IMG/VR virus record: IMGVR_UViG_2579778745_000007
Coordinates: 1 to 33,129 of that record
From: a virus
Lineage: Duplodnaviria > Heunggongvirae > Uroviricota > Caudoviricetes
DNA length: 33,129 bases
Strand: one strand, 5' to 3'
A program made the position numbers and the translations under genes. A model generated the notes under the pieces. The model saw only the letters and a program-made list of their open reading frames with translations. It had not been told where the DNA came from and did no database searches. Below are positions 1,557-17,051 of the stretch, in pieces (positions within the stretch are counted from its first letter, which is position 1; each line of letters opens with the position of its first letter).

Positions 1557-1578
1557 ATGCCCGGCATCAACCGGGCAT
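1557..1578. terminator. Hairpin between convergent c1 and ant-like genes
   Basis: ATGCCCGG-CATCAA-CCGGGCAT, 8-bp perfect stem; weak T tract. Confidence 0.35.
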
Positions 1579-1585
1579 TCTTCCA

Positions 1586-2701
1586 TTATTCAGCCGCCAC
1601 CGGTTTTAACAAGCCAGCATCGAGCAGTTTACGCGTCAACCACTGCTGGCCTTTACCCGTTAATTGAGGCGTCAACCGTATCTGGTAGCCATCTTCATCA
1701 TCCAGCACCACTTCTTTCACCGTGAAATACCCCGCGTTGATGTACTGCTGGAACGGCACATTTTTACGTCCACCGGACGCTATCAGGATGCCGTTCTCCC
1801 GTAACCAGGCAAACAGCGCGTTTTGCTTAAGTCCAACAACCTTTGCAAAATTCCCAATCAGGATCCCTTTAGCTACTGATACCCGGTCGGCAAAATCGAC
1901 TTTAGGAGCGGCGGCCACCAGCTGCTGATTTAGCTGGTGGGCTTTCTGTTCCAGAAGCTGCTTTTGTTCAGCCAGTTCGGCAGCCAGGCGCAGAGCTTCT
2001 GGAAGCGTCTGGGGGATTGCAACCGGTTGCTGTTCTTTTTGTCGGAAGTAGCTGTCTTCCAGTTTTTCAAAGAATGCCCATGCCTGATCGGTTTCGATCA
2101 TTTTAGCGTGGCGGGCTGCGCCGCGTTCCGTCCAGAGGATGAGTGAGCGGGCTTTAGGAGAGATAGGATTTTGTGAGTTACTTAAAGTCACTCGCAAATT
2201 GTTCAAATCATCTCCAATAACTTTATAGAAATGCTTGCCTTCACAAAAACGTTCAGCATTACGGGAAAAGTTCTTCTTGATGTTATCCGCATCTGTCCCA
2301 TACCCCTTAGCAAGGATCTTAGTTGTCACTACACGCACTCCCAGCCATTCCAGAACGGGAATTTCATCAGACTGATTCTGAACAACCACCAGCTCCGATT
2401 CCTGAACTGAAGGTGCATGAGTTTTTTCTGATTTAACGTTAGTTGCTTTCATTCTGTGTGCCTCCTTGCGTGTTTCGGCTGCGACGGTTGCGTAATTCAG
2501 ATGCCCCTGTTCGAGCAGGTATTCGCGGATATCAGACAACAGAATGCGGTGAACAGCGTTCTTGTCCTTTCTCCGGTAAAGTTGTTTGGTGATCATGAAG
2601 TAGTTGGCAATAACGCCCGGTATATCCCTGGTACTGATACAGGATGTGTGCTGTTCAATTGCCTCAATCATTTCTTCACGGGTGACTAATGACGTTCTCA
2701 T
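1586..2701 (-). CDS. Phage antirepressor-like protein (ORF6N/KilA-N-like central region plus KilAC/ANT-type C-terminal domain)
   Basis: Central segment VTTKILAKGYGTDADNIKKNFSRNAERFCEGKHFYKV and C-terminal segment typical of antirepressor domains; start overlaps stop of upstream small ORF. Confidence 0.55.
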   Translation of the reverse strand: MRTSLVTREEMIEAIEQHTSCISTRDIPGVIANYFMITKQLYRRKDKNAVHRILLSDIREYLLEQGHLNYATVAAETRKEAHRMKATNVKSEKTHAPSVQESELVVVQNQSDEIPVLEWLGVRVVTTKILAKGYGTDADNIKKNFSRNAERFCEGKHFYKVIGDDLNNLRVTLSNSQNPISPKARSLILWTERGAARHAKMIETDQAWAFFEKLEDSYFRQKEQQPVAIPQTLPEALRLAAELAEQKQLLEQKAHQLNQQLVAAAPKVDFADRVSVAKGILIGNFAKVVGLKQNALFAWLRENGILIASGGRKNVPFQQYINAGYFTVKEVVLDDEDGYQIRLTPQLTGKGQQWLTRKLLDAGLLKPVAAE

Positions 2702-2919
2702 AGTCCCTCCTGAGCAGAAGCGTTAACAGGGAGGCACCAGTAACTGAGAGAGTTGCGCGAATCAGTGGAAAAGCGGGCAGAGAAAATGCAGGGAGCGTCA
2801 GGAAGCTGAGAACGGGCCTCATCTTCTGTCGGTGCAATAACGAAGTGATAGTGACGTTTCTGGCAGGAATAGAAGCGCCAGATGAATTCAGGATGAGTTG
2901 GGGTAGGGACAGTAGCCAT
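2698..2919 (-). CDS. Small protein (73 aa) coupled to the antirepressor gene; possible Icd-like cell-division inhibitor
   Basis: AAGGAGG RBS 6 nt upstream; ATGA overlap with downstream ant-like gene, the arrangement known for icd-ant in P1 immI; identity not verified. Confidence 0.35.
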   Translation of the reverse strand: MATVPTPTHPEFIWRFYSCQKRHYHFVIAPTEDEARSQLPDAPCIFSARFSTDSRNSLSYWCLPVNASAQEGL

Positions 2920-3104
2920 AATGGCAGCCTCCTTTGACTAAGTTAAGGAGCTACCGCGTGAGGTCTCAATCTCAATGGCGGTAGCACTGACTGGGTTGAG
3001 ACTACCGGCGTCAAAGGGAACCGGCCTGCCTTTCGGCAGCCCAGCCAGCACTACCATTGATTTCGGAGCTAAACGCTACGTATGGCTGTGCGATGGCATG
3101 ACAC

Positions 3105-3127
3105 AAAAAAAGACGCTTTCGGCGTCT
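3105..3127 (-). terminator. Rho-independent terminator downstream of pacB
   Basis: Minus-strand RNA AGACGC-CGAAA-GCGUCU followed by U6-7. Confidence 0.55.
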
Positions 3128-3260
3128 GTGTCGCCTTTGACATTATCCGGGGTCTCAATCCCGGCACCCGTTTTAATGAGGTGCCTGATAAGCATAAACC
3201 GAAAATGCCTCAAGGCGCAAGAGGTCAGGTTCAATGTAACATCGGTAGTTAAAAAACACA

Positions 3261-3277
3261 ATTTATTAGAGCAAATA
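3261..3277 (-). promoter_or_regulatory. C1 operator-like site just 3' of pacB
   Basis: Reads TTTGCTCTAATAAATTG on minus strand, 15/17 to consensus. Confidence 0.45.
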
Positions 3278-4763: not shown

Positions 4764-5956
4764 TAATCATCATCCCCGTATAGCTTGCGGGTAACTTCTT
4801 CGTCTTCCTCCTCGTCTTCGTCCAGGTCTTGTTCCAGCCATGGGTCGTTTGATACACCTTCAGTATCAACATCTCCATAACCGCCTGTATCAACGATATC
4901 GGCGATTTCTTCCCTACGCTGCTCAATCCACAATGCGGCATCGGCGCGGCGGTTGGCGGCCCGTTCTCGCGCAACTTTGTCCAGATCTTCAAGAGAAGGG
5001 CCACCGACGGCTGTTTGCCTTTCCTCATCATCGGTATTTGTCTTAGGAGCACGCAGATCGGCTTTGATTTGCTCCAGCATCAGGGGCGGCACTTTCCCGC
5101 CATGCGCCTCGATGAATTCAGCTGCTTCCAGCACTGACCAATTATTTTCACGCTTTCGTTCGTATGCCAGCTTAACAATGCCAGCTTGCCCCATAGATAA
5201 AGCGTGCTTTTCCGCCTCCCGGCTTTCTTTTCGATAGTTATTCCGGATGCTGTAAATGGTGTTGATCAGGCTGCTTATCTGCGCGGAACAGCTGTTTAGC
5301 ATGCTCGCGATACGGTATTCAGGCGGAGTACCTTCATCATCGTCTTTTTGCTGATCGCGCATTTCCTGCACCAGGCGAATACACGTATCCCTGGCGTTCT
5401 CCAGCATAAGGAGATGAGAAAGAGACTTTTCAAGAAGAGTGGTTTCCAGAACATCGGCCCCGGACCGACGCAACATAGCGCGCGCGGCCTTCCGCGCTTC
5501 AACGTTATCTATCAGGTAATCGCCAGCTTCGAATTCAAAGCGTTCACCATCATCATCCAGGGTGTCGCGTTCCAGGCGATCACGTAAGGTACGGTGGGCG
5601 CGGTTGATCACGTCATGATCATCCGAACGATCATTTATGCGCTTATTTTGGCGCTTCGCATTCTCGACTGCGGCACTGACAACGGCATTAACTCTCTGTT
5701 TTTCCGCTATTTCAGCCGCAATATGATCACCTGCATGTTGATCATTAGAGTGATCAATGATCATGCTTTTTAGTGGCTTCCTGACTGGCTTATTTGGCTT
5801 GCGGCTGTCCGCAGTCCTGGTGTCTTCTTTGAAGGCACGGAGATAACGACGTGCGGTATTAGGGTTAAGATTAAACTCGGCGGCATACTGTGCGATGGTG
5901 TAACCACCATCTCGCGCCAGGCGAGCAAAATTCTTCTTGTGATCGTCCCAGGTCAC
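4763..5956 (-). CDS. pacA: Terminase small/pac-recognition subunit (P1 PacA-like, 397 aa)
   Basis: 397-aa ORF with basic N-terminus and acidic C-terminus, coupled to terminase large subunit; contains clustered TGATCR hexamers in its 5' part; GTG start with AGGAAG RBS. Confidence 0.7.
5605..5763. other. pac packaging site: seven TGATCA/TGATCG hexamers in a 3 + 4 arrangement
   Basis: Hexamers at 5605-5610, 5616-5621, 5628-5633 and 5724-5729, 5739-5744, 5751-5756, 5758-5763, separated by about 90 bp; each contains a Dam GATC site. Confidence 0.7.
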
Positions 5957-6494: not shown

Positions 6495-6574
6495 CCTGTC
6501 ACCTACTGATTAGCCCATGTCAACTAATCAACGTGGAATATAACACCCTCGATTAAAGAAATAGCAATACATTA

Positions 6575-6591
6575 GAGCAATTTTATCTAAC
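6575..6591 (-). promoter_or_regulatory. C1 operator-like site upstream of the Lpa-like ORF
   Basis: Reads ATTGCTCTAATGTATTG on minus strand, 14/17 to consensus. Confidence 0.4.
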
Positions 6592-7837: not shown

Positions 7838-8218
7838 CTACTCCGCAGAACCATACAATCTACGTAACGTGTCGGCGACAGAAGATACAGATATCTCGCC
7901 AGTCGCAGCGCCTACAGTAAGGTCTGCCAGTTCAGGTGAATCAAATACCTGCACCCCGTTACGGCGTAGAAATAGCAGCGCACTGTTTAGCGCGGTACGC
8001 TTATTGGCATCATTGAATATATGCCCTCTCGCTGTAGCCACCAGGTAGGTGGCGGAGACTTCGAAAAGGTCGGTGATATCTTCGTAGGCAACTCTGGCCT
8101 GAACTCTCCCGATAATGGCCTCTGCCCTACCCGGATCTGACATTCCCGGCAGGCCGCCGTAGCGGCTTATATTCGCATCATGAAGCGCAATAAGTTCTTC
8201 CGGTGATATATGCCTCAT
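7838..8218 (-). CDS. doc: Doc toxin (Fic-fold kinase, death on curing)
   Basis: 126 aa; Fic motif HIFNDANKR; closely matches my recollection of P1 Doc; stop/start coupled to phd. Confidence 0.95.
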
Positions 8219-8469: not shown

Positions 8470-8615
8470 AATTATAAACTTCACAGGCATAAAGCACCAG
8501 CACTTTGCGGCTTAACAAACCTCTAGGCAGGTCATTCGTAGCCTAATGTCCGAACTGCTAAAGCATCCAAGTTGCTGTAGAATCACCGCCAATTACATAA
8601 GCCTGAAATAAGTGG

Positions 8616-10178
8616 ATGAAAATGACAAGTATTCAACAACGTGCAGAGCTTCATCGTCAAATCTGGCAAATTGCTAACGATGTCAGGGGTTCGGTCGATG
8701 GATGGGATTTTAAGCAATACGTTCTGGGCGCACTTTTCTACCGTTTTATCAGCGAAAATTTTTCCAGTTATATTGAAGCCGGTGATGACAGTATCTGTTA
8801 TGCGAAACTGGATGACAGCGTAATTACTGATGACATTAAAGACGATGCCATCAAAACTAAAGGCTACTTCATCTACCCCAGTCAGCTTTTCTGCAACGTA
8901 GCTGCGAAAGCAAATACTAATGACAGGCTGAATGCAGATTTAAACAGCATCTTCGTTGCTATCGAAAGTTCTGCTTACGGTTATCCTTCAGAAGCTGACA
9001 TCAAAGGTTTGTTTGCTGATTTCGATACCACCAGTAACCGCCTGGGTAACACCGTTAAAGATAAAAATGCCCGCCTGGCTGCGGTTCTGAAAGGGGTTGA
9101 AGGGTTAAAACTTGGTGACTTCAACGAACATCAGATTGACCTGTTCGGTGATGCCTATGAGTTCCTGATTTCTAACTATGCGGCAAATGCCGGTAAGTCA
9201 GGCGGTGAGTTCTTTACACCGCAGCACGTCTCCAAGCTGATTGCACAACTGGCTATGCACGGGCAGACCAACGTTAACAAAATCTACGACCCGGCAGCGG
9301 GTTCCGGCTCACTGTTGTTGCAGGCTAAAAAGCAGTTTGATAACCACATCATCGAAGAAGGCTTTTTCGGTCAGGAAATCAACCATACGACCTATAACCT
9401 GGCGCGTATGAACATGTTTTTGCACAATATCAACTACGACAAGTTTGATATCAAGCTGGGCAATACGCTGACTGAGCCGCACTTCAGAGATGAAAAACCG
9501 TTTGATGCCATCGTTTCTAACCCGCCGTATTCGGTGAAATGGATTGGCAGCGATGACCCGACGCTGATTAACGATGAACGTTTTGCCCCGGCTGGCGTCC
9601 TGGCCCCCAAATCCAAAGCTGACTTCGCCTTTGTACTACATGCGCTGAACTATCTTTCGGCCAAAGGTCGTGCTGCGATTGTCTGCTTCCCGGGTATTTT
9701 TTACCGTGGCGGCGCAGAGCAGAAAATCCGTCAGTATCTGGTCGATAATAACTATGTCGAAACCGTAATTTCACTGGCTCCGAACCTGTTCTTTGGCACC
9801 ACCATTGCCGTAAACATTCTGGTTCTGTCCAAACATAAAACGGATACCAACGTTCAGTTTATTGATGCCAGCGAACTGTTCAAAAAAGAGACCAACAACA
9901 ATATTCTGACCGATGCCCATATCGAACAGATTATGCAGGTATTTGCCAGCAAGGAAGATGTTGCTCATCTGGCAAAATCTGTCGCGTTTGAAGCCGTTGT
10001 CGCGAATGACTATAACCTGTCGGTGAGCAGCTATGTGGAAGCGAAAGATACTCGCGAAATTATCGATATCGCTGAGTTGAATGCAGAGCTGAAAACCACG
10101 GTCAGCAAAATCGACCAATTGCGCAAAGATATTGATGCGATTGTGGCTGAAATTGAAGGCTGCGAGGTACAGAAATGA
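8616..10178 (+). CDS. hsdM: Type I restriction-modification N6-adenine methyltransferase subunit HsdM (type IC-like, 520 aa)
   Basis: AdoMet motif [10 protein letters not shown] and catalytic NPPY ([10 protein letters not shown]); stop overlaps hsdS start. Confidence 0.95.
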
Positions 10179-11407
10179 GCGAGTTGAGTTATCTGGAAAA
10201 ATTGCTGGATGGAGTTAAGGTTGAGTGGAAAACACTAGAGAAAGTGCTTAAACGAACTAAAGGCACAAAAATAACCGCTGGGCAGATGAAAGCTCTTCAC
10301 AAAGATAATGCGCCGCTTAAAATTTTTGCAGGGGGAAAAACAGTAGCCTTTGTTGACTTTAAAGATATTCCAGAGAAAGATATTAATAGAGAGCCATCGA
10401 TCATTGTTAAATCCAGAGGTATTATCGAATTCGAGTATTACGATAAACCATTCTCTCACAAAAATGAGATGTGGTCATATCACTCAAATAATGATGCGAT
10501 AAGCATAAAGTATATTTATTACTTCCTAAAAATAAATGAAGGATATTTCCAGAAAATTGGGGGTAAAATGCAAATGCCACAAATTGCAACTCCTGATACA
10601 GATAAGTTTGAAGTTCCAATCCCCTGCCCGGATAATCCGGAAAAATCCCTAGCCATCCAGTCTGAAATCGTTCGGATTCTGGATAAGTTTACTGCACTTA
10701 CCGCTGAGCTTACCGCTGAGCTTAACATGCGTAAAAAACAGTACAACTACTATCGCGACCAGTTGTTGAGTTTTAAAGAGGGTGAGGTTGAGTGGAAGAC
10801 TTTGGGGGAAATTGGGAATTTTACATATGGATATGCAGCCAAAGCCATGGACTCAGGAGATGCCCGTTTCGTGAGAATTACTGACATAAATAAAGACGGG
10901 AAGCTATCGAAAGAAAACCCAATGTACGTTGAATTAAATGAGGAAAATGAGAAATATACCTTAGACAAAAATGATTTACTCATGGCAAGGACTGGTGCAA
11001 CCTTTGGTAAAACAATGATTTTTGAAGAAGATTATCCAGCAGTATACGCTGGTTTTTTAATAAAGTTGAACCTAAATGAAACGATTATTAATGCCAAATA
11101 TTACTGGCACTTTGCACAAAGTGATTTTTTTTGGGAACAGGCTAATAAATTAGTATCTGGTGGTGGGCAACCACAGTTTAATGCTAATGCACTGAAACAA
11201 GTCAGAGTACCTATTCCATACCCATCTCACCCTCAAAAATCTTTAGACGAACAGGGGCGTATTGTGGATATTCTAGATAAGTTTGATGCAATCGCAGCTT
11301 CCATCACCGAAGGTCTTCCGCGTGAAATCGAGTTGCGCCAGAAACAATACGAATATTATCGTGATTTACTGTTCAGTTTCCCGAAACCTGAAACTGTCAG
11401 TAATTAA
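10175..11407 (+). CDS. hsdS: Type I R-M specificity subunit HsdS (type IC architecture)
   Basis: Two AT-rich variable regions separated by a conserved central region with TAEL-TAEL repeat; conserved C-terminal ...[23 protein letters not shown]. Confidence 0.9.
10697..10720 (+). repeat. Two tandem copies of the 12-bp repeat CTTACCGCTGAG (encoding TAEL) in the hsdS central conserved region
   Basis: Direct read of sequence; a partial third unit CTTA follows. Confidence 0.9.
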
Positions 11408-11528
11408 TTGACCATTGCTACCGACCGGGCCACCTTAACACCCGGTCAGTATATAGACTATTTTTTACACGCCGGAAGTCGCCCTTAAAGCCCTTCCGGC
11501 CCTTGCCAGACGGCACAAAGGATGCGCT

Positions 11529-14500
11529 ATGACTCATCAGACACACACCATTGCTGAATCCAATAATTTTATCGTTCTTGATAAGTACATCAAAGCTGAG
11601 CCAACAGGCGACAGCTACCAGAGCGAATCGGACCTGGAACGCGAACTGATACAGGACCTACGGAATCAGGGCTATGAATTTATTTCGGTAAAATCACAGT
11701 CAGCGATGCTGGCCAACGTTCGGGAACAGCTTCAGAGCCTCAATGGTGTGGTGTTTAATGACAGCGAGTGGCGGCGTTTCACGGAGCAGTATCTGGACAA
11801 CCCGAGCGATGGCATTCTGGATAAGACCCGTAAAATCCATATCGACTATATTTGCGACTTTATTTTTGATGACGAGCGACTTGAGAACATCTATTTGATA
11901 GATAAAAAGAATCTCATGCGCAATAAGGTGCAGATTATCCAGCAGTTTGAACAGACGGGTTCTCATGCTAACCGTTATGACGTCACGATCCTGGTTAATG
12001 GCTTACCACTGGTACAAATCGAACTGAAAAAGCGCGGCGTGGCGATTCGTGAGGCTTTCAACCAGATACATCGTTACAGTAAAGAGAGTTTTAACAGCGA
12101 AAATTCCCTGTTTAAGTATCTGCAACTGTTTGTCATTTCTAACGGCACCGATACCCGTTATTTTGCCAACACAACAAAGCGCGATAAAAACAGTTTTGAC
12201 TTCACCATGAACTGGGCGAAATCAGACAATACACTGATTAAAGACCTCAAAGACTTTACCGCTACCTTTTTCCAGAAACATACTCTGCTTAATGTTCTGG
12301 TGAACTACAGCGTTTTTGACAGTAGTCAGACGCTACTGGTGATGCGACCGTACCAGATTGCCGCCACCGAACGAATCTTATGGAAAATCAACAGCTCCTA
12401 TAAAGCGAAAAACTGGTCTAACCCCGAAAGCGGTGGCTTTATCTGGCACACCACCGGTTCTGGTAAAACCCTCACCAGCTTTAAAGCCGCGCGGCTGGCA
12501 ACAGAACTGGACTTTATTGATAAAGTCTTCTTCGTGGTCGACAGGAAAGACCTCGATTACCAGACTATGAAGGAATATCAGCGTTTTTCGCCAGATAGTG
12601 TTAACGGCTCGGAAAATACCGCAGGTCTAAAACGAAATCTGGATAAGGACGATAACAAAATTATCGTCACCACTATTCAGAAACTTAATAACCTGATGAA
12701 AGCAGAAAGCGACCTGCCTGTATACAATCAGCAAGTGGTGTTTATATTTGATGAATGCCACCGCAGCCAGTTTGGAGAAGCGCAGAAAAACCTGAAGAAG
12801 AAATTCAAACGCTATTATCAGTTTGGTTTTACCGGCACTCCTATTTTCCCGGAAAACGCTTTAGGTTCAGAAACGACCGCCAGCGTATTTGGTCGTGAAT
12901 TGCATTCGTATGTAATTACCGATGCGATTCGAGATGAAAAAGTGCTTAAATTCAAGGTGGACTACAACGATGTGCGGCCACAGTTTAAGTCTTTAGAGAC
13001 AGAAACCGACGAGAAAAAACTGAGTGCGGCTGAAAATCAGCAGGCGTTTCTTCATCCCATGCGTATACAGGAAATTACGCAATATATTCTGAATAACTTC
13101 CGCCAGAAGACCCACCGTACTTTCCCAGGTTCCAAAGGCTTTAATGCCATGCTGGCAGTGAGTAGCGTGGATGCCGCGAAAGCCTATTACGCGACGTTTA
13201 AACGGTTACAAGAGGAAGCAGCTAATAAATCGGCTACCTATAAACCGCTGCGTGTTGCGACAATCTTCTCCTTTGCCGCCAATGAAGAACAAAATGCCAT
13301 TGGTGAAATTTCCGATGAAACTTTTGATACCAGCGCAATGGACAGCAGTGCTAAAGAGTTTCTTGACGCTGCAATTCGTGAGTATAACAGCTATTTTAAA
13401 ACTAACTTCAGCACCGACAGTAACGGTTTTCAGAACTACTATCGTGATTTAGCCCAACGGGTTAAAAATCAGGATATCGATCTGTTAATTGTCGTTGGGA
13501 TGTTTTTAACCGGCTTCGACGCTCCAACATTGAACACGCTATTCGTCGATAAAAACTTGCGTTTTCACGGCCTGATGCAGGCATTCTCCCGCACCAACCG
13601 CATTTATGACGCTACTAAAACCTTCGGTAACATCGTCACTTTTCGGGATCTGGAACGCTCAACTATTGATGCCATAACGCTGTTTGGTGACAAAAACACC
13701 AAAAATGTGGTGTTAGAAAAGAGTTATACAGAGTATATGGAAGGCTTTACTGATGCTGCTACTGGTGAAGCTAAACGCGGCTTCATGACAGTAGTTTCAG
13801 AACTGGAACAACGGTTCCCTGACCCTACCAGTATTGAAAGTGAAAAAGAGAAGAAAGACTTCGTTAAACTGTTTGGCGAATACCTGCGTGCCGAGAACAT
13901 CCTGCAAAACTATGATGAATTTGCCACGCTAAAAGCCCTGCAACAAATCGATCTTAGCGATCCTGTTGCGGTAGAAAAATTCAAAGCAGAACATTATGTG
14001 GATGATGAAAAGTTCGCTGAATTGCAAACAATTCGTCTCCCTGCTGATCGCAAGATTCAGGATTATCGTTCGGCCTATAACGATATTCGCGACTGGCAGC
14101 GCCGTGAGAAAGAAGCTGAGAAAAAAGAGAAATCAACCACTGACTGGGATGACGTAGTTTTTGAGGTCGATTTGCTGAAGTCTCAGGAAATAAACCTGGA
14201 TTATATCCTTGGACTGATTTTCGAACACAACAGACAAAATAAAGGCAAGGGCGAAATGATCGAAGAGGTCAAACGCTTAATTCGTTCAAGCCTAGGGAAC
14301 CGTGCTAAAGAGGGCCTGGTGGTCGATTTTATTCAGCAAACGAACCTGGATGATTTACCGGACAAAGCCAGCATCATTGACGCATTCTTTACGTTTGCTC
14401 AACGCGAACAGCAACGTGAAGCAGAAGCATTGATAAAAGAAGAAAATCTCAATGAAGATGCAGCAAAACGCTATATTCGCACGTCTTTAAAACGCGAATA

Positions 14501-14645
14501 TGCCACCGAAAATGGCACAGAATTAAACGAAACATTACCAAAACTTAGTCCGTTAAATCCGCAATATAAAACGAAAAAACAGGCAGTTTTCCAGAAAATC
14601 GTCTCGTTTATTGAGAAGTTTAAAGGCGTAGGCGGAAAAATATAG
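11529..14645 (+). CDS. hsdR: Type I restriction enzyme endonuclease/translocase subunit HsdR (1038 aa)
   Basis: Helicase motif I TGSGKT, motif II DECH, motif [10 protein letters not shown]; size typical of type IC HsdR. Confidence 0.95.
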
Positions 14646-14661
14646 CCCAATTCGTGTTTTT

Positions 14662-14689
14662 CTTGCGGGTTCTTAATTAAACCCGCAAG
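14662..14689. repeat. Perfect 10-bp inverted repeat (CTTGCGGGTT / AACCCGCAAG) with 8-nt loop, 17 bp after hsdR stop
   Basis: Direct read; T-run precedes rather than follows the stem on the plus strand, so not a canonical terminator. Confidence 0.5.
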
Positions 14690-14724
14690 AGACCGTGGGG
14701 TTCCAAATGGCTAATATACTCCCC

Positions 14725-14811
14725 TTACCTATGCGCGACAATGCTGCCAAAAGTGATAAAGAACAGCCAGAAATAGATCGCGGCCATAATGATTTTGAAT
14801 GCCGTGCTCAT
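14725..14811 (-). CDS. 28-aa hydrophobic peptide candidate (MSTAFKIIMAAIYFWLFFITFGSIVAHR)
   Basis: AGGAG RBS 8 nt upstream of ATG; single predicted transmembrane-like helix; below ORF-track length cutoff. Confidence 0.3.
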   Translation of the reverse strand: MSTAFKIIMAAIYFWLFFITFGSIVAHR

Positions 14812-14839
14812 ATTTTCAGCTCCTGTGATTGATTGGATA

Positions 14840-14870
14840 CATGCCGCGCCTTGCGGCATGTTTTTATTTT
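14840..14870 (+). terminator. Rho-independent terminator (8-bp stem CATGCCGC/GCGGCATG, loop GCCTT, then TTTTTATTTT)
   Basis: Canonical GC-rich hairpin plus T tract on plus strand; likely terminates hsdR transcript. Confidence 0.7.
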
Positions 14871-14909
14871 CACTTTCTCTGTTTTAAAAATCAATATTTA
14901 TTTGAGCAA

Positions 14910-15416
14910 TTATTGCTGATGAAGAAGCGCATTTTCATACTCCCTGACCATTAACGTAAGCACGCCGTGCCTCCTGAAAACACGCGCCACTTCAATCTTA
15001 TCTTCCAGCGCGAACGCGATTTTACTTAGACCAATTTTCTTAAGGAGATCAATCTTTGCTGGGCCGTCATTTCTGTCATCGGTGGCAGGACGCATAGATA
15101 GCAAAGGCTCAGCCCCGTTTGTTACGTACTTCCGCAGCCAGGCTCGTGTTTTATCCCTTGCGATCTCACAGCGCCCGGTTACAAACCAGACCGTGTAAAC
15201 GTTAAATAACTGGCGCACCATATCAATAACTGGAGTTATGGGAGTATCGGTGTCACAGGCGAGATTAAACTCGTTCCAGTCCTTTGTTAATGCACCTTTA
15301 CCTGGTGGCGGAAGCAAATGCAGTCTGTCTTCAGTTGCCTCTGATATTGTTCCATCAATATCGACTATGACGATATACGGACGTTCCTGGTGTGCGTGTT
15401 TATTGAAAATACTCAA
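14910..15416 (-). CDS. HAD-superfamily phosphatase-like protein (168 aa)
   Basis: N-terminal HAD motif I VIVDIDGT; downstream conserved T/K/D positions consistent with HAD fold. Confidence 0.5.
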   Translation of the reverse strand: MSIFNKHAHQERPYIVIVDIDGTISEATEDRLHLLPPPGKGALTKDWNEFNLACDTDTPITPVIDMVRQLFNVYTVWFVTGRCEIARDKTRAWLRKYVTNGAEPLLSMRPATDDRNDGPAKIDLLKKIGLSKIAFALEDKIEVARVFRRHGVLTLMVREYENALLHQQ

Positions 15417-15488
15417 ATGCCCTCCTCATTGGACGAAAAAAATGCTGGTGGGCGCACTCCACCAGCATTAAATGTGACACTGTAACTA

Positions 15489-16751
15489 TCAGCGGACGTA
15501 AATAGTGCCGCCGTTCTCTTTTTCCCATGCATCGCTAAGTGCATAGCAAACATCAAGAAGTCTTCTTGCCGCTGTTTCCTCTAAACCCAATTCGACAACC
15601 AACTGCTCATGACGGCGGGTAACCACATCAAACAGGGTATGCAGCCCTTTAGTTGCCAGATCATCAATGAATTCCGGTTCGAACGGCAGCTCTGCATCTG
15701 CCAACATAACCTCTTGCGCCCACTCAACTCGACGGACCAGTTCCGGGCGGCGGCTTTCCATCTCTTTACAGATCAATTCATGGAAGAACTCTACCCAACC
15801 TTCCGGCTGGAACTCGCGGAAAATTGCCAACGGCTGGAAGTTTGGCATCAACCATTCGTTGATTCGGATATCAATGGCATAGCCCATGTCGCAGCAGAAC
15901 TGATAAGCAAAGTCCAGCTTAGAAACGATATAAGGACGCTCGTTATTGAACTCTTTAGGCGATGAGATCCCATAAGCCAGGAGGCGCGGGAAGAAGGAGA
16001 TTTGCCCTAACGTCGGATGAAGTTTGCTTGCAGGGAAACGTCGCTCAGTAATGCCATACATTTCCTTCTTGAGCGTCGCAAATTTAGCATTTTCATTAAC
16101 CAGCTCGGTAACCTCTGCTTTTTTATTAGCAAATGCCACGCGCGCCTCGCTTGCATCTTTAATAGCCTTTTTGAGCTGTTGGTTAAGGTCAGCGACCTGC
16201 TTACGCAGTTCCTGTCGCTCACTTTTGGCTTTGTTATGGCGTTTCTCAAGGTTAAAAGGATCAAGTTTCATGATCTCTTTATATTGAGATTTTAGCGTTG
16301 AAATCTGTGAGTTCCGCAGTTCAACCATCGCGGTCATTTCATTGAGTTTTGTTTCCAGCTCAATGCTTATACGTTCGGCATTATCAGCACGCTGGTTGGC
16401 GTCATGCGTCGCATCGTCGATCGCGTCCTGTTGCTGGCGTTTCAAATGTTCAATTTGCAGCTGAAGCTCTTCAATTTCTTTATCCTTCAGACCGAGATCC
16501 AACTGCATATTTTCAGCTGCATCTACCAGGGAGTTATGGCTATCAGCTTCTGCGTTATAAACATCAATAAGCTGTGCGTGAAGCATCTCCGCTGACTGAA
16601 CCGCATTATCAAAAAAACGCGCTGTGAGGTCATCACAACTAACGCGGCGTTGCGCGGCCCGGATGTTCTGGATAATGGCCGGGATACCGGCATTCAGGAC
16701 GTCAGGGATAGATACATTTTCGATTGATTGGTTTTGTGCTGAAGTGATCAT
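15489..16751 (-). CDS. Hypothetical protein with long N-terminal coiled-coil region and globular C-terminal domain (420 aa)
   Basis: Heptad-rich, charged segment over roughly residues 70-220; no recognisable catalytic motif. Confidence 0.45.
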   Translation of the reverse strand: MITSAQNQSIENVSIPDVLNAGIPAIIQNIRAAQRRVSCDDLTARFFDNAVQSAEMLHAQLIDVYNAEADSHNSLVDAAENMQLDLGLKDKEIEELQLQIEHLKRQQQDAIDDATHDANQRADNAERISIELETKLNEMTAMVELRNSQISTLKSQYKEIMKLDPFNLEKRHNKAKSERQELRKQVADLNQQLKKAIKDASEARVAFANKKAEVTELVNENAKFATLKKEMYGITERRFPASKLHPTLGQISFFPRLLAYGISSPKEFNNERPYIVSKLDFAYQFCCDMGYAIDIRINEWLMPNFQPLAIFREFQPEGWVEFFHELICKEMESRRPELVRRVEWAQEVMLADAELPFEPEFIDDLATKGLHTLFDVVTRRHEQLVVELGLEETAARRLLDVCYALSDAWEKENGGTIYVR

Positions 16752-16985: not shown

Positions 16986-17002
16986 ATTGCTCTAATAAAA
17001 AA
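16986..17002 (+). promoter_or_regulatory. C1 operator-like site (ATTGCTCTAATAAAAAA)
   Basis: 14/17 to consensus; partner site in opposite orientation 33 bp away. Confidence 0.45.
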
Positions 17003-17034
17003 CGCAATGAGTGTACATCACGTTTTAAAAATAT

Positions 17035-17051
17035 GGAATTATTAGAGCAAT
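17035..17051 (-). promoter_or_regulatory. C1 operator-like site (reads ATTGCTCTAATAATTCC on minus strand)
   Basis: 14/17 to consensus; almost identical to the site at 44-60. Confidence 0.45.

Follow-up and report, generated by a model that had tools for sequence, protein, structure and literature searches.

Between the restriction gene hsdR and the phosphatase gene pap of the IMG/VR virus record IMGVR_UViG_2579778745_000007 (Caudoviricetes), of which we analysed one stretch of 33,129 nucleotides (positions 1 to 33,129; hereafter the window), lies a 264-bp gap at positions 14646-14909. The window as a whole is a P1-like phage-plasmid, an identity that follows from the C4 antisense RNA (75 bits in Rfam; 2974-3061, minus strand) and the adjacent isrK-family RNA (60 bits in Rfam; 3106-3184, minus strand) of the P1 immI region, from three tRNAs that match the P1 tRNA set, and from the gene order. 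Near the gap, this order runs doc (7838-8218, minus strand), phd, hsdM (8616-10178), hsdS (10175-11407) and hsdR (11529-14645, plus strand, 1038 amino acids), followed beyond the gap by pap (14910-15416, minus strand) - the upstream neighbour of the unit described here, which belongs to the P1 backbone and encodes a HAD/PNKP-type phosphatase - and then by pmgS, pmgQ and ppp. We consider it likely that the gap joins the tail of an hsd cassette to a C1-controlled promoter and to the first gene of a P1 early operon, which would encode a small membrane protein.

Three features of the gap had been picked out by an initial annotation and are indeed there: a perfect 10-bp inverted repeat (hairpin 1, 14662-14689); a minus-strand open reading frame (ORF) for a hydrophobic peptide of 28 amino acids, preceded by AGGAG (14725-14811); and a plus-strand terminator, which our scan recovers as a stem at 14839-14861 followed by a T-run (hairpin 2). 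Taken bare, such features are not above chance - the gap holds 10 ORFs of at least 20 amino acids, and the terminator scan returned two sites against 1.6 expected in 1.3 kb, hairpin 2 being the only one on the plus strand - so the case rests on conservation and covariation in relatives.

Two pieces joined at 14720/14721

Recombination has brought two unrelated stretches of DNA together in the gap. The left 75 bp (14646-14720) are the tail of the cassette and carry hairpin 1 together with the last 15 codons of an Ead/Ea22-like gene; the right 189 bp (14721-14909) are P1 backbone, namely the pap-pmgT intergenic region, and show 95.8% identity to P1 84294-84482. A BLAST search with the gap returned hundreds of records, which we grouped into three classes by the part that was matched. 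All 264 bp are found in some 220 E. coli plasmids and in the phages phi456 and 673R5, every one of them a P1-like element with doc-phd-hsdMSR; the right piece only (14721-14909) is found in P1, P7, SJ46, JL22, RCS47 and many plasmids; and positions 14646-14804 only are matched in IncF-type plasmids such as pEC881_1. In these IncF/R124-type copies, the insertion sequence (IS) IS1 at 14804 leaves only the small ORF from codon 3 onward and has removed the promoter, the operator and hairpin 2; the insertion is a single ancestral event that then spread. In plasmid pF1267, IS903B has inserted between the Shine-Dalgarno (SD) sequence and the ATG of the small ORF. As to the surroundings of these copies, IS1 is followed in pEC881_1 (our locus L003, 8048-9979) by a candidate defence pair annotated as a SMODS nucleotidyltransferase and an S-4TM pore-forming effector, and then by an AAA ATPase and vapBC, so that the P1-derived phd-doc-hsd fragment sits there within a defence/addiction island.

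The join lies in a patch of microhomology, ATGGG[T/G]AAGGGG (14719-14730), which is apparent when the junctions of P1 (CATGGGTAAGGGGGATGC), of plasmid NZ_CP085065 (our locus L195; GATGGGGAAGGGGAGTAT) and of the window (CATAGGTAAGGGGAGTAT) are aligned, and these alignments place the crossover within its 12 nt, exactly at the stop codon of the small ORF. As the rest of the operon has been replaced by the hsdMSR cassette, the small gene is orphaned in the window element.

The cassette itself (8516-14720, plus strand) is a type IC restriction-modification system of the EcoR124I type. Its HsdR aligns at full length (1-1038 of 1038) with the EcoR124I HsdR chain 2w00_A at 2289 bits and contains the Pfam domain EcoR124_C, two results which establish the type, and the order hsdM-hsdS-hsdR is the one expected for this family. 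Aligned to P1, the cassette has its left border at about 8515/8516 and its right border at 14720/14721, and thus substitutes for the P1 genes pmgT-pmgU-pmgV-upfMNO-hot-lxr-humD; this pmgT-humD stretch is the 'variable region 8' of a survey of P1-like phage-plasmids (PMC9603915). The P1 annotation (AF234172) already notes that its stretch corresponding to the right piece of the gap matches what lies downstream of hsd at EcoDXXI and R124/3, and that phd-doc matches DNA upstream of the EcoDXXI hsd locus. A plasmid that is otherwise 99.8% identical, NZ_CP100919 (L001, 6031-9146 and 1-640), has an hsdR annotated as frameshifted and a KilAC antirepressor gene with an internal stop.

Hairpin 1 is formed by arms CTTGCGGGTT (14662-14671) and AACCCGCAAG (14680-14689) around an 8-nt loop. 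Its predicted RNA fold is stable on either strand (-20.4 kcal/mol on the plus and -19.9 kcal/mol on the minus strand, z about -4.5 to -5.6), and 0 of 200 shuffles fold as well. It had been described as something other than a canonical terminator, and rightly so: it lacks a T-run on both strands (plus-strand tail AGACCGTG, minus-strand tail AAAAACAC), and it is absent from the list produced by the terminator scan. A bidirectional terminator was also considered and rejected, the U and A tracts being on the wrong sides. The suggestion that this hairpin marks the cassette boundary is roughly right: it falls within the last 75 bp of the cassette, 31 bp away from the junction at 14720/14721.

Its origin is explained by the gene that once lay there. 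Directly after the stop of the small ORF, and in frame with it, run the last 15 codons and the stop of an Ead/Ea22-like gene (GEYISHLEPHGLLRV, 14677-14724, minus strand), which have no start codon of their own; the TAA of this relic falls in the loop of hairpin 1, and one arm codes for LRV. The same hairpin is found unchanged in pEC881_1 and in NZ_CP085065, and in the latter the same hsdR and hairpin 1 are followed by an intact convergent gene of 127 codons (5035-5415, minus strand), whose product matches the Pfam family PF13935 (Ead_Ea22) at E = 2e-18 and ends in GEGEYISYLESHDLLRV. Given this intact gene and the relic stop within the loop, hairpin 1 is the structure that once lay between a convergent hsdR and an Ea22-like gene, and the 75 bp are, by this alignment, what was left after recombination removed the remainder of that gene. 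Genes of PF13935 are frequent cargo of the P1-like variable region. The 28-residue peptide had itself been suspected of being a remnant; the true remnant is the run of 15 codons after its stop, and the ORF, as set out below, is conserved and under purifying selection.

The 28-codon frame in P1 and its relatives

The small ORF (14725-14811, minus strand; MSTAFKIIMAAIYFWLFFITFGSIVAHR) starts with ATG at 14811 and ends with TAA at 14725-14727, and AGGAG (the reverse complement of 14820-14824) lies 8 nt upstream of its ATG. The best 19-residue Kyte-Doolittle window of the 28-residue peptide scores 2.27, which is transmembrane-like, and a single-pass membrane protein is predicted. We collected about 190 P1-type loci by a degenerate-pattern scan and by an independent Pap-anchored scan of IMG/VR, with some contigs present in both. 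Comparison of the junction across relatives, which had been proposed as a check on conservation, finds the ORF conserved: the 28-codon frame is intact in all 137 loci in which pmgT comes next, and in 46 of the 47 in which the hsd tail comes next. The P1-type consensus peptide is MNTAFKIIMAAIYFWLFSITFGGIVAHG, from which the window peptide departs, as it does from P1, at four of 28 residues (N2S/S18F/G23S/G28R).

More distant homologues carry the argument further. Cronobacter phage JK004, whose Pap is 73% identical, encodes one of 53 amino acids (MHLIFKLAITAFYAWMLTVVITSFKPDANMKASRYLGNLSASYDCDQQGDDSL) in the same synteny; two metagenomic lineages (L192, and L193/L194) encode 53-residue variants of the JK004 form, again in the same synteny; and a further lineage (L197), which has no pap, encodes one of 48 amino acids (MNTAFKLAMAAFYFWIFCIAFNGLVKAAPTLQVIYQNDAPASNQEGSF) within the same module. 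In all of them the start codon is kept, a GGAG stands equally far upstream of it, and the N-terminus forms a hydrophobic helix of the pattern M..FK...A.Y.W, the best 19-residue hydropathy windows lying between 2.0 and 2.3. Scans of IMG/VR and of plasmids with the JK004 Pap returned P1 proper only and no JK004-like relatives, and this P1-proper set was reused as an unbiased sample of the small ORF; a degenerate-pattern scan of genomes at species level returned only two Escherichia contigs.

The pattern of substitution is that of purifying selection on the small ORF. Within the JK004 clade, pairwise ratios of nonsynonymous to synonymous substitution (dN/dS) are 0.22-0.39. In the P1 type, 8 synonymous and 8 nonsynonymous distinct events fall on 18.3 and 65.7 sites respectively, a ratio of about 0.28; and between P1 and the other lineages, the proportion of differing synonymous sites (pS) is 0.56-0.67 and that of nonsynonymous sites (pN) 0.44-0.45. 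Judged by its conservation, the small ORF is a genuine gene and belongs to the P1 backbone.

Scans of the 28- and 53-residue peptides against Pfam, NCBIfam and PHROGs gave no match below E = 0.05, a profile search of 1.84 billion representative proteins found eight clusters only, all of them P1-like, and a search with a 44-residue extended frame found close relatives only. Public records call the product 'hypothetical' or 'membrane protein', mostly as a protein of 44 amino acids with an upstream start. We rejected this longer form, which begins at an ATG inside hairpin 2: it has no SD sequence, and the extension is impossible in JK004. RefSeq also carries a plus-strand ORF of 41 amino acids across the same DNA (14707-14832; L001 9208-9333 and L004 6062-6187), annotated as a 'hypothetical protein' in some plasmids with identical DNA by the Prokaryotic Genome Annotation Pipeline (WP_259393606.1 / WP_258766984.1). 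Beyond that annotation, the case for this ORF as the real gene of the locus is a poor one: it starts within the 75 bp specific to the cassette, a segment missing from P1, no antisense ORF spans the homologous region of JK004, and conservation tracks the minus-strand frame. We therefore hold it to be almost certainly not the gene, and both the 41-residue plus-strand and the 44-residue minus-strand calls are probably mis-annotations of the 28-codon gene.

In P1 and its relatives, the small gene stands at the head of an operon. In P1, its stop lies 9 nt before the ATG of pmgT and overlaps the purine-rich pmgT SD sequence, and in the JK004 clade and L197 it overlaps the next gene by ATGA or TGATG; this proximity of stops and starts suggests that the small ORF opens an early accessory operon and is translationally coupled to the cistron behind it, coupling being predicted in P1 and relatives alike. 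What follows it varies - pmgT, winged helix-turn-helix-like genes, methyltransferases or Ead/Ea22 genes - and the surrounding synteny, ppp-pmgQ-pmgR-pmgS-pap-[operator]-operon, is found throughout, save that L197 keeps the module without pap. There (1572-3147), the operator, promoter, hairpin, leader and small ORF come directly after pmgS, which shows that it is the small ORF, rather than pap, with which the module travels. Depending on lineage, the small protein has a C-terminal tail of 0, 20 or 29 residues. In three IMG/VR loci (L081, L123 and L179) and one protein (P0007), the P1-type ORF is fused from codon 20 to unrelated DNA (MNTAFKIIMAAIYFWLFSINKKTLIVSIV...), and in another locus (L064) the cargo switches directly after a TAG stop, which suggests that the 3' end of the small ORF is a place where breaks recur, at it or within it, when cargo is exchanged.

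Such an arrangement raises the question of whether the frame could be a regulatory upstream ORF only, one whose translation matters, either because pmgT is coupled to it or because it holds the leader open, and whose peptide has no function. The stop within the pmgT SD sequence, the ATGA/TGATG overlaps elsewhere, the variable tails and the larger number of amino-acid variants in orphaned copies (see below) would all fit. However, the transmembrane helix is kept at the protein level despite strong divergence of the DNA, good conservation within the JK004 clade extends to the 29-residue tail, and the frame is intact in all but one of the hsd-class loci, where there is no downstream gene to couple. 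We thus find a functionless peptide unlikely, and retain the reading of the small ORF as a protein-coding gene.

Operator, leader and hairpin 2

Upstream of the small gene lies the C1 operator OpmgT, formerly Op88 (ATTGCTCAAATAAATAT, 14894-14910, minus strand), which has two mismatches to the 17-bp C1 consensus ATTGCTCTAATAAATTT and whose P1 homologue is annotated in AF234172 as a C1 protein_bind feature. Sites of this kind, with at most three mismatches, number 11 in the window against 0.19 expected, a 58-fold excess, and an OpmgT-like operator is kept in JK004, L192, L193 and L197. The first six of the eleven lie at 44-60, 127-143, 591-607, 3259-3275, 6565-6581 and 14894-14910, and the other five at 16986-17002, 17035-17051, 20659-20675, 30785-30801 and 30796-30812; the last two form an overlapping inverted pair (30785-30812), and the pair at 16986-17051 occupies the position of Op86a/b upstream of pmgR. 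Our literature search on Op88 returned unrelated papers only, and a P1vir RNA-seq paper has no per-gene text on the pap-pmgT region.

Two weak sigma-70 promoters, which the operator would overlap, are predicted here, both transferred from AF234172 and both on the minus strand: P1pmgT, with its -35 element TTGATT at 14889-14894 and its -10 element GAAAAT at 14866-14871, and P2pmgT, with its -35 element at 14904-14909 and its -10 element at 14881-14886. The corresponding hexamers, TTGATT-17-GAAAAT and TTGCTC-17-TAAAAC, are present in the window. The -35 TTGATT is kept in all lineages (as TTG-TTT in JK004), and five lineages share one layout: an operator (ATTG[C/T]TCTAATAAATAT), TTGATT, about 17 nt, a weak -10 element, a hairpin within 5-8 nt, the leader and the ATG.

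The leader (AUCCAAUCAAUCACAGGAGCUGAAAAU, 14812-14838, minus strand) contains the SD sequence AGGAG at 14820-14824, and its core (AAYCAATCAYCGGAGCC / AATCAATCACAGGAGC) is near-invariant although the ORFs differ at more than 40% of nonsynonymous sites; in relatives, it lies at 5560-5586 (L110), about 1765-1791 (L192) and 2974-3000 (L197). Conservation over some 20 nt exceeds what an SD sequence by itself needs, and the leader may be a binding site for a regulator or a small RNA. Pairing of the leader with C4 (shuffle fraction 0.46) or with the isrK-like RNA (0.06, marginal) was tried and rejected. In the minimum-free-energy fold predicted for a 225-nt minus-strand RNA, the SD sequence is unpaired, in a loop closed by a 2-bp helix only, and the terminal hairpin is the sole stable element at the 5' end.

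This terminal element is hairpin 2 (14839-14861), a stem of 10 pairs, 6 of them GC, with a loop of 3 nt, which takes the form of a terminator on the plus strand: TTTTATTTTC follows directly after the stem, the T-run occupying 14862-14871, and the fold is predicted at -17.4 kcal/mol (z -4.2). The stem arms in P1 are ACATGCCGC/GCGGCATGT, in JK004 GGCCGC/GCGGCC, in L192 TTGGCAGTCAC/GTGACTGCCAA and in L197 AAGGCCAC/GTGGCCTT; that is, the sequences are unrelated between lineages and the position is the same. In an in-register alignment of the four non-P1 lineages (five distinct sequences), 6 of 11 pairs are changed on both sides, and 94.3% of cells are paired, versus 17-45% when the partner arm is slid; 0 of 500 shuffles attain the observed 94.3%. 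Wobbles point the same way: all five events are G.U on the sense strand of the ORF and would be C.A mismatches on the plus strand. The P1 type accounts for three of them (C9>T, which is seen in 21 loci, as well as C16>T and C2>T) and L193/L194 for two. No antisense-side T-run is present in the tails of JK004, L192 and L197, which were read by eye; terminator scans of these three also found none, with a loop limit of 3-8 nt that makes them blind to 9-nt loops.

With covariation, wobbles on the sense strand only and a U-tract absent from relatives, hairpin 2 would be primarily a sense-strand structure, most probably a stem-loop with which the small-ORF/pmgT mRNA begins. Bacterial mRNAs are stabilised by stem-loops at their 5' terminus, as in the ompA 5' untranslated region (UTR), and by analogy mRNA stabilisation is the most likely role of hairpin 2. 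The 9-nt loops of the other lineages are more conserved than their stems and GCRCTWYCA-like (ACGCTATCA, GCACTACCA and GCGCTTCCA; L110 5543-5551, L192, L193 and L197 2958-2966), which hints at a loop-specific interaction or a bound factor; the P1-type loops differ (AAGGC, with variants AAGAC and AAGGGGC).

The converse would be that hairpin 2 is mainly the plus-strand terminator of the hsd cassette, and that the copy in P1 is the scar of a cassette since lost. The stem with UUUUUAUUUU is indeed canonical, and the homology noted in the P1 annotation with the downstream flanks of EcoDXXI and R124/3 hsd would be consistent with such a history. Yet the position and the compensatory changes are kept in P1-like lineages that have neither hsd nor a U-tract, the wobbles fit the opposite strand, the IncF/R124-type copies of the cassette are without the hairpin because IS1 cuts at 14804, and the P1-type T-run falls on the -10 element predicted for the promoter. 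A terminator as the main role seems doubtful to us on this evidence. As a secondary effect of the sense-strand stem-loop, hairpin 2 and its T-run probably also stop read-through from hsdR, as a by-product of the AT-rich promoter.

Proposed expression of the small gene, and known systems

From these elements, a course of events may be proposed. In the plasmid-prophage state, C1 would sit on Op88 and the unit would be silent, while hsdR transcripts would cross the relic and the small ORF in antisense and end at the U-run of hairpin 2. Upon induction or infection, with C1 inactivated, minus-strand transcription would begin at about 14858-14875 and give an RNA that starts with the stem-loop, at or within a few bases of the predicted start, where it could stabilise the message. 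The 28-residue peptide would then be made and enter the inner membrane. In P1 and the other lineages, the ribosome that ends at its stop would re-initiate on the next gene (pmgT in P1); in the window element there is no following gene, and since hairpin 1 has no U-tract, the transcript would run across it and antisense into hsdR. Our best guess is that the peptide, as an early membrane protein of accessory function, acts on the envelope of the host.

Several points weigh against this account. The transcription start, the RNA and the protein of the unit are predictions from sequence, and the predicted promoters score 8 of 12, below the 9-of-12 threshold of our scan. The hairpin 2 of the P1 type is a textbook plus-strand terminator and may have a role on that strand. 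The P1-type population is very shallow, so that most of the coding evidence rests on the four distant lineages. Amino-acid variants occur in 27 of 47 hsd-class loci versus 4 of 137 pmgT-class loci, counts in which loci are partly duplicated between the two scans; the changes seen in the hsd class are G22D, G23S, G23D, T20I and A10T, plus those of the window. These loci are also richer in synonymous variants, with distinct-event ratios of about 0.3 versus about 0.2, and the excess could mean that selection was relaxed once the gene was orphaned, or just that the lineage is older and more diverse. Finally, pmgT-pmgV proved non-essential in a CRISPR interference screen of P1 (PMC10695390), which leaves the operon without a known phenotype.

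The initial annotation had gone further, likening the locus to a type I toxin-antitoxin system of a small membrane peptide and an antisense RNA. On such a reading, the 28-residue membrane peptide would be the toxin, and its antitoxin would be a plus-strand antisense RNA - a dedicated small RNA or the hsdR 3' UTR - that ends at 14839-14870. There is something to be said for this: in size and hydrophobicity the peptide is like type I toxins, its SD sequence is strong, a good plus-strand terminator lies just past the start of the ORF, and read-through from hsdR would be fully antisense to it. Moreover, two independent IS insertions (IS1 in the IncF plasmids and IS903B in pF1267) cut the ORF from its promoter or SD sequence where C1 control may be absent, which is compatible with toxicity when unrepressed, though these are two events only. 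However, the short hydrophobic peptide is the sole defining feature of such a system that we find here. A consensus scan, itself insensitive, detected no plus-strand promoter-like site at 14300-15600 or in P1 from which the proposed antisense transcript could arise, and the one antisense promoter-like match inside the JK004 ORF is not kept in L192 or L197. No Rfam antitoxin RNA reaches its gathering score, and a search of 14500-15050 relaxed to E = 10 yields only noise (GcvB at E = 0.14, isrK at E = 8); nor does the peptide match the Pfam or NCBIfam models for Hok, Ldr, TisB, Ibs, Sho, Zor or other families, or show homology to DinQ or Fst. Type I toxin promoters are constitutive or stress-induced, and the promoter of this ORF lies under a phage repressor operator. 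In relatives, besides, the ORF heads an operon whose downstream genes would be coupled to it, its SD sequence is not sequestered in the predicted mRNA fold, and the antisense U-tract is absent from three other lineages, the hairpin being kept for the sense strand. On the promoter, RNA-family, toxin-family, operator, operon and SD results, a type I system is not supported, and we regard it as highly improbable.

A more speculative idea, to which we give little credence, is that the 28-residue helix is a functional early effector of the inner membrane, harmful or strongly active when unrepressed, and held in check, in elements that carry hsd, by both C1 and the antisense hsdR transcript. Were this so, the convergent hsdR transcript would be an accidental analogue of a type I toxin-antitoxin system, created by the cassette, and the helix would be encoded by the one cistron that never varies, placed first where the phage's main cargo hotspot begins. 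In the reverse direction, lytic transcription from PpmgT running antisense into hsdR could shut restriction down during phage development.

The importance of the locus is modest: the gap is mostly ordinary and reveals no new mechanism. Already on record were the operator, the variable region and the mosaic of P1 flanks around hsd genes of the EcoR124/EcoDXXI type. What is new is that a conserved gene for a small membrane protein, absent from the P1 reference annotation, is given its correct strand and start; new, too, are the structurally conserved 5' hairpin with its leader, the origin of hairpin 1 in an Ea22 relic, and the microhomology junction. P1 is among the best-studied phages, yet its reference annotation is without this small gene. 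The gene marks the left edge, itself fixed, of the pmgT-humD hotspot, in which P1-like phage-plasmids exchange defence and resistance genes. And it was a P1 fragment, with phd-doc, EcoR124-type hsd and the truncated small ORF, that seeded the widespread IncF copies of the restriction system.

Set beside known systems, the gap is close to the pap-pmgT region of P1 (AF234172), with which it shares operator, promoter hexamers, hairpin, leader and small ORF; the difference is that P1 has the small ORF unannotated and then pmgT-pmgU-pmgV, whereas the window has a 15-codon Ea22-like relic and a convergent hsdR. With the EcoR124I (R124/3) and EcoDXXI loci, the window has in common an HsdR that matches the EcoR124I chain at full length and the flank homologies that the P1 annotation recorded; on IncF/R124-type plasmids, in contrast, the ORF is truncated by IS1 and the control region lost, and the window keeps the P1 control region intact. 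As for the Ead/Ea22-like genes (PF13935) of lambdoid and P1-like accessory regions, the relic corresponds to the C-terminus of the intact NZ_CP085065 protein, whose gene converges on the same hsdR, but only the last 15 codons remain, without a start codon. Like ompA-type 5' stem-loops, hairpin 2 is a stable GC-rich structure near the predicted start, with an open SD sequence and conservation of structure rather than of sequence; it differs in that its start is predicted only, and in that the 9-nt loop of the non-P1 lineages (GCRCTWYCA) is fairly conserved. Type I toxin-antitoxin loci (tisB/istR, hok/sok, ibs/sib, zor/orz), for their part, share with the window a hydrophobic single-helix peptide of fewer than 30 amino acids, a good SD sequence and, here, a potential overlapping antisense transcript, and are set apart from it by their dedicated antisense RNA genes and family homology, in place of which the window has a repressor-controlled promoter, predicted operon coupling in its relatives and an open SD sequence.

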